Positions 16,837 through 54,678 of a stretch of DNA of 64,000 bases are shown here, one piece after another. Each line of letters starts with the position of its first letter. Position 1 is the first letter of the stretch. The notes beneath the pieces were generated by a model, which saw only the letters and a program-made list of their open reading frames with translations, was not told where the DNA came from and made no database searches. Origin of the DNA: a virus; the IMG/VR virus record IMGVR_UViG_3300030060_007200; one strand, given 5' to 3'. Made by a program: the position numbers and the translations under genes.

Positions 16837-16882
16837 GTGTACACTCCTTAGCTTTATATATAAATATCTTAAAGAATTGTTT

Positions 16883-23670: not shown

Positions 23671-24536
23671 GATTTGCTTGGTGGTTGGTTAGAACTATAT
23701 ACCAATGTATATATTACCTTGCCATCTAAATCTTCTTTGATTCTTATTTCAGAATCCACAATTCCTAGTTTTTCTATAATTGTTTGAAGCCTAGATATTT
23801 TTTCAGAATCATAATTGCTTATACAAATATATTCACCAATAATTGTTACAACCATATTGTTGTAGTCATATCTTTTTTCGAATAAATTATATACCTCTTC
23901 ATCTAAAACAGGTACTAAAGGTAAATCATGTATAAGTCTTTCTGAATAATATTTTTGATTTTTTATGTCTAAATTTTCAAACCACTTTTTGAATGATGTA
24001 TAATCACCTTCAAAAATATTTTTGTCATTGTCTTTCATTAACGACCACATCTCTACAGTTGTTAATGCCTCGGGTATATATTTTTTATCTTTACCCATTT
24101 TCCAAGTACCATCTTTATTCGATTCGAAGTTTGTTCTATATTGCTTAAATAAATTTATTAAATTATCTATAGAATTCAACCCCTGTCTATTTGTATCTTT
24201 TATTTTAGGTGGCACATAATCTGAGTATGTATTGTCTAACGTTATTTCCTTAATAAGTTTTGTTAAACCTTTTTTACCAGAATCTAATAAATTTTTTAGT
24301 TCCTGGCATTTTTCGTATTCTTCTGTTTCAATAAAATAATCTATGATGTCATTTAGAATATCAGTAAGTTCTTTTACATCTAGACTAAATGGGTCGTATA
24401 ATATATAATGCGTTTCATTACCTGCTACGGCGAAGTTATCGATTTTTGATTTACCGGTAACTAACCTATAGGTATTTAGAAATGCTACATCCAAACCTTC
24501 AGTGTTTAATTCTTGTGATTCATACGATTCCATCAT
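23667..24536 (-). CDS. Hypothetical protein with UVR-like helical motif
   Basis: YFIETEEYEKCQELKN resembles a UvrB/C motif. Confidence 0.6.
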   Translation of the reverse strand: MMESYESQELNTEGLDVAFLNTYRLVTGKSKIDNFAVAGNETHYILYDPFSLDVKELTDILNDIIDYFIETEEYEKCQELKNLLDSGKKGLTKLIKEITLDNTYSDYVPPKIKDTNRQGLNSIDNLINLFKQYRTNFESNKDGTWKMGKDKKYIPEALTTVEMWSLMKDNDKNIFEGDYTSFKKWFENLDIKNQKYYSERLIHDLPLVPVLDEEVYNLFEKRYDYNNMVVTIIGEYICISNYDSEKISRLQTIIEKLGIVDSEIRIKEDLDGKVIYTLVYSSNQPPSKS

Positions 24537-24558
24537 ACTCCAATTATTTATTTTGTTA

Positions 24559-24791
24559 CCTCTAACCTCCGAAGCTTATACGGTGTGCTTCTTCTACCGT
24601 TGGTTTAGGGTGCCTTATCAGGCAGCCATCGCCATTTCAACTTGTGCGCCAGTTATGCGTTGAACTTCCTTATATCCTTTTCACCGTGTCAAATCCAGTC
24701 ACCCCCATGTTTTAACCTAAATCTTCTTGTGGAGGTGGAGGGTATCGAACCCTCGTCCAACAATGCAGCTAATATAAGTAATAGCGTTCAA
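24559..24791 (-). ncRNA. ssrA: Circularly permuted (two-piece) tmRNA; tag GAQVEMAMAA
   Basis: T-arm GAGGG-TTCGATA-CCCTC and 3' acceptor strand CACCTCCA (24754-24730) precede the 5' strand GGGGGTG-ACTGGATTTGAC (from 24706). Acceptor stem has G3:U70. ATAACT precedes the tag ORF at 24650-24621, followed by TGA TAA. Three inter-piece helices can be drawn. Confidence 0.93.
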
Positions 24792-24800
24792 ATATAAATA

Positions 24801-25028
24801 TCACTTCTCTACCTGTTTTTTAGGTTTTCTTCTATAAGTTCTGCGATTATTTTTAGGTGCAGATTTCCTAGAATTTTTTCCAAGTGATTTGATTTCGTTT
24901 TTTAGTAATTCATTTACTAGAATTTTATCTTCTAATAATTGTTTAACTGTAACGAATCTTTTGTTTAGATATAGTACTGTTCCTAATATACCTAAACCAA
25001 ATGCTAGTATTACTGATAATGTTATCAT
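24801..25028 (-). CDS. Small membrane protein with basic tail
   Basis: N-terminal TM segment and K/R-rich C-terminus. Confidence 0.6.
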   Translation of the reverse strand: MITLSVILAFGLGILGTVLYLNKRFVTVKQLLEDKILVNELLKNEIKSLGKNSRKSAPKNNRRTYRRKPKKQVEK

Positions 25029-25300
25029 TTCTTATACCCTTTCCATGTTCCTGTTCCCTCTTCAAGCATGCCAAGTCTTTGTCCTACTTTATACATTTTC
25101 TGCATATCATACATAGTCTCTATAACTCTATTTGTTTCAGAGAATGTTAATTCAATTCTCTTACCATCTATAAAGAATGTACCGATTAAAGGTTGATTAG
25201 CATCTCCTTGCGGACGTAATGCTTTAGCTCCTTTCATTAACTCACAGTCAATTGTTGACCAAACTTTCCCATACTTTTGGGGATTAAATTTCTTTGCCAT
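25025..25300 (-). CDS. Hypothetical protein
   Basis: Intact ORF in operon context. Confidence 0.65.
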   Translation of the reverse strand: MAKKFNPQKYGKVWSTIDCELMKGAKALRPQGDANQPLIGTFFIDGKRIELTFSETNRVIETMYDMQKMYKVGQRLGMLEEGTGTWKGYKK

Positions 25301-51145: not shown

Positions 51146-51382
51146 CTATTTTGTCATTCTTTGTGTCCAATCTTTTAGCTTATCCTGCAGTTGTTTTTTA
51201 ATTCCAGGTCCTCTAAAAGTTCCGCCTATCTTCATTGCGTCTTTGATAAAGCTATTATATTCTTTGTTCCATTTTACTACCAAAGTTTTTTCAAAATCAT
51301 TTAATAATTTTGCTCGCTCTTTGTCTTCGCCTTTTGAGATTGTTCCGTCAGGATTAGCCTCAATAATTTTTTTTAATTTCAT
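51146..51382 (-). CDS. Small protein with MKLKKIIE leader
   Basis: Leader motif. Confidence 0.6.
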   Translation of the reverse strand: MKLKKIIEANPDGTISKGEDKERAKLLNDFEKTLVVKWNKEYNSFIKDAMKIGGTFRGPGIKKQLQDKLKDWTQRMTK

Positions 51383-54300
51383 TGTTTTATCACCCTTGTT
51401 GTAAATCTTTTGTTATTATATATAAGTATCAAGTTATATACACCATTACTGTAATTTGATAAATCTATTCTTTTAGATTTTTCTCTTGTCATTAACTTAC
51501 CTTGTAAATTGTATATTTCAACCTCCACATCCAATCTTGTATCTATATTTAATACATCGCCTGTTGGATTTGGATAAACCATAATTCCCATAGATGTTAT
51601 ATCTTCAACATTTGTTGGCCAACCTAATTGGCAATAATCATACATTGATATACATGATGCATCCCAATCTGTAGTACAGCAATAGTCGTCTACTGATATC
51701 ACCCAAGCATAACATCCATCATTTAACCAATAAGGTATACCAGGCCCTCCATAACATCCTGCATCGTATAAACATGCTGTAGAATCAGTTACATTTGCCA
51801 GTGGATTGTAATTATATGCCGCTACATCTGTACAACCTGAAACAATTTCGATACATGAATTATCATCAAAGCATGCTGCCGGGTCATAATTCAATGCTGT
51901 AGGGTCAGTACAACCTGAAATATAACAACATGTATTATCAGATGTGTTTGCCAATGGATTGTAGTTTAATGCTACTGGGTCGTTACATCCGTATACAAAA
52001 GGTTCACATGAACCGTTATCAACATTAGCCAATGGATTATAGTTCCACATTGTCGAATCTGTACAACCATAAATTGGTAAAATACAGCTAAAATCATCTG
52101 TGTTTGCAAGTGGGTCGTAATTTAATGCTGATGGGTCTGTACAACCGTAAACAATAGATTGACAAGTGCCATTATCTGTATTAGCTAATGGGTCATAATT
52201 AAATGCCGTTGAATCCATACATCCATATATAAACGGTATACAATTTCCTGATGATGTATTTGCTGTTGGGTCGTAGTTCCACATTGTATTATCCATACAT
52301 CCAATTATTACAGGAATACAACTACCATCATTTGTATTTGCTGTTACATCATAATTAAACATTGTTGGGTCTGTACAACCGTAAATATAAGGTATGCAAG
52401 AACCATCATCTGTGTTAGCTGTTAAACTATAATTATACATTGTTGAATCAGTACAGCCGTATACAATACCTACACATGTTCCGTCATCATCTGTAGCAGC
52501 AGGATTAAAGTTTATTGAAAGTGGATTTGTACAACCTGCAATTTCCAATTCATCGCAAACTCCATCACCATCTGTATCTAATATACAAGCTCCATAACAA
52601 TCATAATATTGAACTGGATATGTACAACCTCCATTATCTACATTTGCAATTGCGTCGTAATTACAAGCTGTTACATCTGTACAGCCTAAATAAATACAAG
52701 AACCATCATCTACATTTGCTAATGGATTGTAATTATATCCTATAGAATCCATACAGCCATTCACAATTGGAATACATGAATTATCATCTACTGTTGCTAA
52801 TGAATCATAATTAAGAGCAAATTCATTTGTACAGCCATATATAATAGGAATACAATTGCCATCATCAGTATTTGCCAGTGGGTCGTAATTTGCTGCTGTT
52901 GAATCCATACAGCCTAATATTACTGGTACACAAGTATTACCACAAAATGGAATACCTACATATTTTGTCCAGAAAGGAGATTCAAAAGATTGTAAAGCTC
53001 CTTGACCGTTATTAGCAAAAGGATTTTGTCCTTCATGCATTAAAACAAAGCCATCTGCATTTGTTAATTTGAATGAGTTATGCCAAGTTTGAAATTGAAC
53101 CTCTTGCGGTGGTTGTTGTGGTCCACCTACTTCAAAATAAAATACTTCAACTGGAATTCCTGGGTCTAAAATAATATTCCATGAACCACCATAATTACCA
53201 GGTCCCATTGTATATGTACCAATTATCAATCCGTTTTGATAAACTCCTATATAAGAATTACCCCAACCATCTCCTGCAGCATCGAATATTTCTAATAAAT
53301 AATTACAGTCAGGTATTAAATCCATCATTGTTGCTGCTGGGTCATAATTAAATGCAGCTGGGTCTGTACAGCCGTATGTATGTAATGTTGCACATGAACT
53401 GTCATCTACTGTCGCAGCAGGATTAAATTCTACGTAATCATCATCTGTACATCCTGGTATTGGAGGTATTATAGGACAAGGTGTTGCCATTTGCTGGCCT
53501 GAATACAATACGGAACCAAAACCTGGATTGTCCATATACCAAATTGTATCACCATCACAGTCGTATATAACAATAGCTCCATCCATCGAACCACCTGAAG
53601 TAGAGCCTGCCATACCGTCACCAAAATCATCGTTAACAATAAGTTCGAATCCTGCAGTTTGGTCTACACAGAAAGTATAAGTGTATGTTTGTCCGATATC
53701 GTTAAAATCATATGTTCCTACTGTAGCTTCATCAATAACTCCTAAACTATTCATTATCCACGATGTTTCTCCTGGCCAATTATCTAGTGTAATTTCCATT
53801 GTTATTTGATATTGAGTTGCAGTATCACAAGATGTACCTGCACAACTTCCATCATCATATGTAGCCCATGGGTTATATGATATTTGAGTAGGGTCTGTAC
53901 AACCTGATATACAAGAAGTAGGTGTGTAAGCTATTGTATCTGATAAACTACCATCTAAAAATTCTACCCAACCATAATGTTCTACTGACCAGTTAGGTGG
54001 CATCTGACCGTTACCTGCGTAAACTGCAAAGTCTAATGAGTTAGGACCAAGTCCATACTGAAAAGGACCTGCGCCATTTTCATTGGAATACCAGAATTTT
54101 ACAGGTGTACAATTTGTATTGCTATCAAGAGTCCAGTTAAAAAGTACAAGTGTTTGTCCACCTGGTAAGCAATTTTGTGATGCTGTAGAAGTTAAAAAAC
54201 CCTGACATGGGTCAAATTGACAAATGCTAGGGTCAGAAATATATGCTGTTGAGTCATAATTTAATGCTGAAGGGTCTGTACAACCTACTGTTGGTGGAGC

Positions 54301-54678
54301 ACAAGGAGCAGTTGTTAATGTTTCTACCAAACTATCTCCAAAATTACCTGCAGCATACATTAAAGTATCTTGGCATGAATTGCTAATTAAAAACCATCCA
54401 TCAGTCCCACCCCATTGAGATGCAGCTAATCCATCACCATAACTATCGTATATACTTGCAATAAAAGTACCTTGTATAGGAATGATAGTATCATATAATG
54501 TATTAGGTAACATACCACTATCATTTTGCAAAATAATTGGTGAGCCTCCTGGAGGTGTGATATCCCAACTTGTTTCAGAAGGATAATTGTCTGTTAATAA
54601 TTGTACGTGAATCCAACTGTCAATTTGTGAAAATACAACCGTTGGTATAACCATTAGTAAAAATACTAGTTTTTTCAT
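51379..54678 (-). CDS. T9SS type A sorting-domain protein with about 18 GC(T/M)D Cys repeats
   Basis: Signal VFS|Q; repeats GCTDxxAxNYDPxAxxDDGSC; C-terminal VYPNP..YNLQGK..IDLSNYSNGVY..RVIKQ. Confidence 0.9.
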   Translation of the reverse strand: MKKLVFLLMVIPTVVFSQIDSWIHVQLLTDNYPSETSWDITPPGGSPIILQNDSGMLPNTLYDTIIPIQGTFIASIYDSYGDGLAASQWGGTDGWFLISNSCQDTLMYAAGNFGDSLVETLTTAPCAPPTVGCTDPSALNYDSTAYISDPSICQFDPCQGFLTSTASQNCLPGGQTLVLFNWTLDSNTNCTPVKFWYSNENGAGPFQYGLGPNSLDFAVYAGNGQMPPNWSVEHYGWVEFLDGSLSDTIAYTPTSCISGCTDPTQISYNPWATYDDGSCAGTSCDTATQYQITMEITLDNWPGETSWIMNSLGVIDEATVGTYDFNDIGQTYTYTFCVDQTAGFELIVNDDFGDGMAGSTSGGSMDGAIVIYDCDGDTIWYMDNPGFGSVLYSGQQMATPCPIIPPIPGCTDDDYVEFNPAATVDDSSCATLHTYGCTDPAAFNYDPAATMMDLIPDCNYLLEIFDAAGDGWGNSYIGVYQNGLIIGTYTMGPGNYGGSWNIILDPGIPVEVFYFEVGGPQQPPQEVQFQTWHNSFKLTNADGFVLMHEGQNPFANNGQGALQSFESPFWTKYVGIPFCGNTCVPVILGCMDSTAANYDPLANTDDGNCIPIIYGCTNEFALNYDSLATVDDNSCIPIVNGCMDSIGYNYNPLANVDDGSCIYLGCTDVTACNYDAIANVDNGGCTYPVQYYDCYGACILDTDGDGVCDELEIAGCTNPLSINFNPAATDDDGTCVGIVYGCTDSTMYNYSLTANTDDGSCIPYIYGCTDPTMFNYDVTANTNDGSCIPVIIGCMDNTMWNYDPTANTSSGNCIPFIYGCMDSTAFNYDPLANTDNGTCQSIVYGCTDPSALNYDPLANTDDFSCILPIYGCTDSTMWNYNPLANVDNGSCEPFVYGCNDPVALNYNPLANTSDNTCCYISGCTDPTALNYDPAACFDDNSCIEIVSGCTDVAAYNYNPLANVTDSTACLYDAGCYGGPGIPYWLNDGCYAWVISVDDYCCTTDWDASCISMYDYCQLGWPTNVEDITSMGIMVYPNPTGDVLNIDTRLDVEVEIYNLQGKLMTREKSKRIDLSNYSNGVYNLILIYNNKRFTTRVIKQ

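Follow-up and report, generated by a model that had tools for sequence, protein, structure and literature searches.

Organisation of the locus

The window analysed here is a 64,000-nucleotide stretch of viral DNA (IMG/VR record IMGVR_UViG_3300030060_007200), low in GC (31-37%), with all its genes on one strand and distant from every isolate phage. The sole gene called by ARAGORN in the whole window is a permuted tmRNA gene, whose features are as follows.

24559-24802, minus strand: permuted tmRNA gene, including the promoter-like box.
24793-24802, minus strand: promoter-like box GATATTTATA, abutting the start of the acceptor piece and present at the same position in 22 of 30 family members.
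24730-24791, minus strand: acceptor piece, comprising the 5' strands of P2c, P2b and P2a, the T arm, CACCUCC and the discriminator A; supported by ARAGORN, RF04321, covariation and the minimum free energy (MFE) fold of the precursor.
24786-24791, minus strand: P2c strand UUGAAC, pairing with GUUCAA.
24771-24778, minus strand: P2b strand CUUAUAUU, pairing with GAUAUAAG.
24760-24765, minus strand: P2a strand CAUUGU, pairing with ACGGUG.
Within the acceptor piece, minus strand: T arm, GAGGG/CCCUC.
24730-24737, minus strand: acceptor 3' strand CACCUCC and discriminator A.
24707-24729, minus strand: intervening segment of 23 nt, poorly conserved and presumably removed in maturation.
24700-24706, minus strand: GGGGGUG, the acceptor 5' strand of the coding piece, completing a 7-bp acceptor stem with G3:U70.
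24651-24706, minus strand: 5' part of the coding piece, comprising GGGGGUG, the D-loop analogue ACUGGAUUUGAC, the 3' strands of P2a, P2b and P2c, and CGC-AUAACU; P2a-c supported by covariation.
24648-24650, minus strand: resume codon GGC.
24615-24650, minus strand: tag frame GGC...GCC, encoding GAQVEMAMAA, with tandem stops UGA UAA; supported by ARAGORN and by codon-position counts.
24611-24624, minus strand: helix 5 hairpin UGCC/GGCA with the stops in its loop; supported by covariation.
24571-24600, minus strand: the only pseudoknot, H-type (pk2 by position), with stems S1 ACGGU/ACCGU and S2 GAAGC/GCUUC; supported by compensated variants.
24555-24570, minus strand: G-rich 3' tail GGAGGUUAGAGGUAAC, whose conserved form in the family is GGUGGUnGGAGGU.

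This is the arrangement read from the letters by the first-pass annotation: the acceptor piece, the 23-nt spacer and the coding piece beginning with GGGGGUG were each located on the minus strand, and the 7-bp acceptor stem with its G3:U70 pair is present. The DNA after the discriminator reads CAA, so that CCA is, as had been stated, not fully encoded. Across the family the triplet at this point is CTA in 21 of 30 members, CAA in 8 and CCA in one, and the intervening segment is 16-23 nt long and variable in sequence. The next gene starts at 24536, just past the G-rich tail. No intrinsic terminator was found at the 3' end of the coding piece in the window; two relatives (L015 and L057) have one at the equivalent point.

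The 10-mer GATATTTATA occurs five times in the window, compared with 0.85 copies expected, and always on the coding (minus) strand, at 16859, 24793, 44825, 55071 and 56996; the copy at 24793 is the one that abuts the acceptor piece. The 10-mer is probably a phage promoter box, and the abutting copy adjoins P2c so tightly that the usual start site would fall within P2c itself. A DUF805b RNA motif (RF02914; 25324-25363, minus strand), scoring 37.8 bits where the gathering score is 35.6, is found some 530 nt upstream of the tmRNA and has the look of a phage cis-regulatory RNA. It lies just upstream of a conserved 91-residue open reading frame (25025-25300) that has no Pfam match and is not a recognisable DUF805 protein.

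Detection and folding

Two detectors identify the gene as a two-piece permuted tmRNA, as first proposed. ARAGORN reports it as tmRNA* (permuted), with the tag GAQVEMAMAA followed by two stops, and the merged permuted-tmRNA model of Rfam, RF04321, gives it 67.4 bits where 47 is the gathering score (E 8e-11, far outside chance expectation), in an alignment that spans 24618-24791 and the full model, positions 1-213, placing it among the permuted tmRNAs. In a sensitive rescan with the older, lineage-specific permuted models none reached its gathering score; beta_tmRNA came best, at 47 bits against 84, with a match confined to the tRNA-like domain, and the alpha and cyano models scored lower still. 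The tRNA-like domain has its 7-bp acceptor stem with G3:U70, its discriminator A and a GGUUCGA-type T loop, and the tag is a short frame that follows a conserved resume context, ends in a hydrophobic ...AA sequence and has its stops in the loop of helix 5.

In the MFE fold of the 233-nt precursor all three P2 helices form exactly as modelled, together with the T arm and the acceptor stem; the thermodynamic z-score of the precursor is only -0.83. When the two pieces are cofolded freely, other pairings are favoured over P2, whose helices are rich in AU and GU pairs; the energy is -57.4 kcal/mol with P2 enforced and -57.7 kcal/mol for the free MFE structure. We considered the unconstrained cofold as an argument against P2 and dropped it, since the P2-enforced fold lies within 0.3 kcal/mol and the precursor MFE fold agrees with the model.

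Homologues, covariation and the tag

A search pattern made up of the T arm, the 3' strand, the spacer and the 5' strand matched 65 IMG/VR contigs, 35 of which carry tags of the form G(E/A)(Q/H/T)VE(M/L)AMAA, as given by ARAGORN and translation. A profile of the coding piece minus its tRNA-like part recovered 39 viral loci, on marine viral contigs, and none of 120 bacterial loci. The family genes share one conserved gene block of related phages, with protein identities of 40-100%, and one contig (L039) is almost identical to the window.

Covariation among these related phages, proposed at the outset as a check on the call, was assessed in an alignment of 30 distinct homologous sequences. The named structure pairs in 93% of the cells, compared with about 43% when the partners are slid by 1-3 columns, and 20 pairs are changed on both sides, a level reached by none of 500 shuffles. 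The covarying elements are P2a, P2b, P2c, helix 5 and both pseudoknot stems. Compensatory changes thus support all three of the inter-piece helices that had been drawn by eye (ACGGUG/CAUUGU, CUUAUAUU/GAUAUAAG and GUUCAA/UUGAAC), and likewise the single downstream pseudoknot, both of whose stems covary. In helix 5 the pair 192/200 is CG in 12 sequences and UA in 11, and the pair 190/202 is GC or GU. For pseudoknot stem S2 an independent search of each sequence gave six fully compensated versions (GAAGC, GGGC, GGGAU, GAGAC, GAGGU and GGGU), and S1 has compensated variants too. Neither the acceptor stem nor the T arm varies in the 30 homologues, since the search pattern demanded both, and so they give no covariation evidence either way.

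Within the tag the minor-allele counts by codon position are 14, 9 and 53 over the 30 sequences. The variation is thus mainly in the third position, implying that the reading frame is under selection. Two family members, L022 (8430-8719, minus strand) and L049 (9921-10210, plus strand), have a tag frame of apparently about 37 codons (GTQIKSVKAG...YAMAA) rather than 10; ARAGORN mis-calls the tags of both.

RNAalifold also proposes that GCUA of the acceptor piece pairs with tag codons 7-8 in a 4-bp helix (alignment columns 20-23 with 179-182, about 24782-24785 with 24629-24632 in the window). It is paired in 98% of sequences, but we did not adopt it because its changes are one-sided only; together with P2c it would make a pseudoknot around the resume codon, which is unproven. 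Also present in IMG/VR are permuted phage tmRNAs with ANDNFALAA-type (AN) tags, inside tRNA clusters, on contigs L011, L050, L051, L052, L065 and L003.

Absence of pseudoknot 1

Pseudoknot 1 (pk1) is the most conserved of the tmRNA pseudoknots and touches the ribosome in translocation (PMC1168896, PMC8363625); it is nearly universal among tmRNAs (PMC1168896), and two-piece tmRNAs typically keep both PK1 and PK2 (PMC3985003). The first-pass annotation saw no room for it here, only CGC separating the last helix from AUAACU, and the family bears this out. The resume codon lies 56 nt from G1 in the window and 55-60 nt from it in 30 of 30 family members, compared with 93-97 nt in one-piece tmRNAs of Bacteroidota type that resume on Gly (68 sequences) and 82-87 nt in 29 alphaproteobacterial two-piece tmRNAs. 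The RF04321 model hairpin at 134-148 is deleted in the window sequence, and no pk1 lies between helix 2 and the resume codon, where the gap from P2c to GGC is only 9 nt (about 9-13 nt across the family, by eye).

In two examples of Bacteroidota one-piece tmRNAs, again by eye, 9-10 nt separate GGC from the end of the pk1 3' strand. P2c therefore ends where pk1 ends in host-type tmRNAs, so that the inter-piece helix sits in the place of pk1. On this structural model, P2c probably takes over the job of holding the region before the resume codon. Such a substitution is plausible because the pk1 of Escherichia coli can be reduced to a hairpin with tagging unimpaired (PMC4236655). A natural family that is conserved and selected without pk1 offers a minimal two-piece template, of about 200 nt, for asking what pk1 does.

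Host phylum

The description of the window as coming from a Bacteroidota-type phage is upheld by several signatures. A protein of 1099 residues (51379-54678, minus strand) ends in a type A sorting domain of the type 9 secretion system, T9SS (TIGR04183; 44.6 bits against a cut-off of 23). The T9SS is a Bacteroidota system, and this domain therefore indicates a Bacteroidota host. Further signatures come from the tmRNA itself. Its 5' 19-mer GGGGGTGACTGGNNTTGAC, scanned over one genome per species, occurs among the matches listed (at least 120) mainly in one-piece tmRNAs of Bacteroidales, Cytophagales and Chitinophagia, with tags such as GENNNYALAA, GENNYALAA and GESTYAMAA. Because the Bacteroidota comparison set was itself obtained with this 19-mer, unbiased evidence is limited to three other features, namely the resume context, the 3' domain and the CCA habit: the 12-mer ATAACT-GGCGAA, as in the window, is found in 19 of 68 Bacteroidota-type one-piece tmRNAs; the 3' part of the tRNA-like domain is identical at about 29 of 31 positions, by eye, to that of a Cytophagaceae metagenome-assembled genome (L164); and CCA is mostly not encoded in Bacteroidota one-piece tmRNAs, which have CTA, CTT or CAA instead. 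The gene thus has the 5' domain, the Gly resume codon and the resume context typical of the phylum, but not its collinear one-piece form. For uncultured phages, such a tRNA-like domain and resume context act in practice as a marker of the host phylum.

Proposed function

We put at about 0.8 the probability that the phage encodes a functional two-piece tmRNA of Bacteroidota type; what the sequence shows is its anatomy, with conservation and covariation, selection on the tag and the Bacteroidota signatures. By analogy, its function is most likely ordinary trans-translation with the SmpB, AlaRS, EF-Tu and proteases of the host, and processing by tRNA enzymes is expected, as for bacterial permuted tmRNAs. 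A single precursor containing the acceptor piece, the 23-nt spacer and the coding piece would be transcribed and then cut by host tRNA-processing enzymes, with RNase P acting at G1; after the discriminator, an activity that makes the 3' end would act first and the CCA-adding enzyme second. The two resulting RNAs would be held together by the 7-bp acceptor stem and the approximately 20 bp of helix 2 (P2a, P2b and P2c). Host AlaRS would charge the RNA through G3:U70, and host SmpB and EF-Tu would bring it to ribosomes stalled on broken mRNAs, where translation would resume at GGC, add (A)GAQVEMAMAA and stop at UGA UAA. The ...AMAA end would mark the product for host proteases, and the ribosome would be freed. 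What the phage gains is likely to be additional capacity to rescue ribosomes while it infects.

A phage SmpB was found neither in the window (best tblastn E 0.77) nor in four related contigs, all of which are fragments, and PHROGs and Pfam searches of the flanking open reading frames gave no SmpB or other tmRNA-related partner. The related contigs, 41-75 kb in length, are rated 23-45% complete, implying a genome of about 170 kb, and an SmpB gene could lie in the remainder.

Origin of the permutation

Where does this permuted gene come from? The first-pass annotation proposed an independent permutation in a phage lineage, and sequence comparison favours this as the more parsimonious reading: the simplest account is that a Bacteroidota one-piece gene was permuted separately from the three known bacterial permutations. 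We regard this as likely but not proven, the beta-type domain being fairly similar and the AN-tagged phage tmRNAs sharing the pk1-less layout. It would probably represent a further origin of tmRNA gene permutation, in viruses of a phylum whose sampled cells carry the one-piece form. To a wider proposal we give roughly even odds, namely that Bacteroidota phages, the large marine ones together with the gut crAss-like ones, have a permuted lineage of their own, derived from a host-type one-piece gene independently of the alphaproteobacterial, betaproteobacterial and cyanobacterial events, in which an inter-piece helix has permanently replaced pk1. If this is true, it amounts to a natural proof that pk1 is dispensable, and these phages have an apparatus for rescue and tagging that is theirs alone and uses a tag of its own.

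The Bacteroidota-like features could instead have been acquired. An older phage-borne permuted tmRNA, either beta-like or of the AN-tagged minimal kind, might have adapted to a new host with no separate permutation of a Bacteroidota gene, gaining the Gly resume codon, the resume context and a tRNA domain like that of Bacteroidota, and losing CCA, to suit a new SmpB, AlaRS, ribosome and CCA enzyme. The features concerned are all under host-specific selection, and of the older Rfam models it is beta_tmRNA that scores highest over the tRNA-like domain, with 47 bits. The AN-tagged tmRNAs (L011/L050 and L051/L052/L065/L003), moreover, have the same pk1-less layout, with 57 nt from G1 to the resume codon, the 5' end of their acceptor piece pairs just before that codon, and their 5' domain looks intermediate (GGGGGTGACCAGGCTTTTGACAG). 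Such an adaptation would nevertheless need many convergent changes, including the exact 12-nt resume context and the 19-nt 5' match; the beta model falls a long way short of its gathering score (47 against 84), matching only locally, and nhmmer detects no similarity to other permuted groups outside the tRNA-like domain. We therefore consider this origin unlikely.

It is still less probable, in our estimation only a slight chance, that the RNA is a decoy or modulator that ties up host SmpB, AlaRS or EF-Tu by titration, or gives host proteins a new tag, and so disables or redirects host trans-translation. There is a precedent in the mycobacteriophage DS6A type of phage RNA, which consists of the tRNA-like domain only and is described in the sources cited as inhibiting tmRNA (PMC4131195, PMC11915505); the phage tag GEQVEMAMAA is unlike the Bacteroidota tags GENNYALAA and GESTYAMAA, and no phage SmpB accompanies the gene in the window or the four related contigs. 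A decoy, however, would have no need of the tag frame, the resume context, the tandem or single stops in helix 5 and the ...AMAA end, all conserved under codon-level selection. That the locus is no tmRNA at all, and merely a tRNA-like fragment or attachment-site remnant beside a chance open frame, we regard as practically negligible: the weak thermodynamic z-score alone speaks for it, and it is refuted by the two independent detectors, ARAGORN and RF04321, by the covarying helices, and by the 39 homologues with their conserved tag.

Comparison with known tmRNAs

The claim of novelty is where the earlier reading has to be trimmed. The call itself stands, but comparable Gly-resuming permuted genes without pk1 are already annotated in the crAss-like phages cr114_1 (NC_055897) and cr50_1 (MT774375) and in Chryseobacterium phage MA9V-3 (PV245944), where they are automatically labelled merely 'tmRNA'. 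These three, which are phages of Bacteroidota or assigned to Bacteroidales hosts, are likewise permuted with the acceptor piece first, resume on Gly, do not encode CCA and, with 59-62 nt from G1 to the resume codon, have no pk1. They differ in their intervening segments, of 59-213 nt compared with 16-23 nt, and in their tags (GNFYVTDYTRIAA, GNNFVTDYTAIGA and GNVIDINKYVAKLEVAA), which are unlike those of the family. With nhmmer the window's family shows no similarity outside the tRNA-like domain to the crAss-like and other minimal Gly-type forms or to other permuted groups. The Gly-type minimal forms may all be of common descent.

Similar genes are present in other viral contigs. A second viral scan with the 5' 19-mer gave 106 contigs, several of which have further permuted tmRNAs of Gly type, whose resume codon lies 59-63 nt from G1. 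Many of the 106 have phage tmRNAs of the one-piece kind: on about 25-30 viral contigs (L193-L263; for example L193, L199, L208 and L213) these combine a 5' domain of Bacteroidota type with unusually long tags of about 35 residues, such as GKNNSRVVALGANAQIEANMNKVFSLLREEVAVAA. Three bacterial assemblies (L143/L186, a Bacteroidales metagenome-assembled chromosome, OY781463; L070; and L182) have a Gly-type permuted tmRNA without pk1 in addition to a normal one-piece tmRNA; these permuted copies end in a terminator and are probably prophage or mis-binned phage. The novelty of the present gene is thus limited, similar permuted tmRNAs being both annotated in phages and present in other viral contigs. 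Annotation pipelines name such genes simply 'tmRNA'. For Bacteroidota assemblies, a tmRNA database published in 2025 counts 48 calls as permuted and does not comment on them (PMC11915505), and in the literature we found no description of a Bacteroidota-type, fourth-lineage or pk1-less permuted tmRNA, or of crAss tmRNA structure.

At the nucleotide level, BLASTN of a 351-nt region against isolate phages gave no match at E 1e-5; it took a search with a short core, at E 10, to arrive at Bacteroidota phage tmRNAs, one of them the one-piece gene of Cellulophaga phage Calle_1. Two-piece ssrA genes are known from marine T4-like phages, namely the Methylophilales phage Melnitz and pelagimyophages, and 53 two-piece ARAGORN calls have been reported in isolate phages (PMC9004378). 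The tmRNAs of Melnitz and the pelagimyophages are of alphaproteobacterial type, that of Melnitz with a glutamine riboswitch, whereas the window's gene has a Bacteroidota-type domain and a Gly resume codon; an Rfam scan found no riboswitch at the window's tmRNA.

The alphaproteobacterial (RF01849), betaproteobacterial (RF01850) and cyanobacterial (RF01851) two-piece tmRNAs, merged as RF04321, have the same gene order as the window's gene. Our cyanobacterial sample yielded no permuted tmRNA for comparison. The alphaproteobacterial two-piece tmRNAs have GGGGGCGAAATAGGATCGACG at the 5' end and an odd T loop, GGGGGCGGTACCC, from both of which the window's gene differs. They encode CCA in 25 of 29 cases, the other four ending in CC, compared with no encoded CCA in the window, and they score 113-162 bits on RF04321 compared with 67. 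With the Bacteroidota one-piece tmRNA (RF00023), in contrast, the window's gene shares the 5' sequence GGGGGUGACUGGnnUUGAC, the Gly first codon, the ...A(L/M)AA end and ATAACT-GGCGAA at the resume site. The two differ in their architecture, the host-type tmRNA being a single piece of about 370-400 nt that has pk1 and further pseudoknots.
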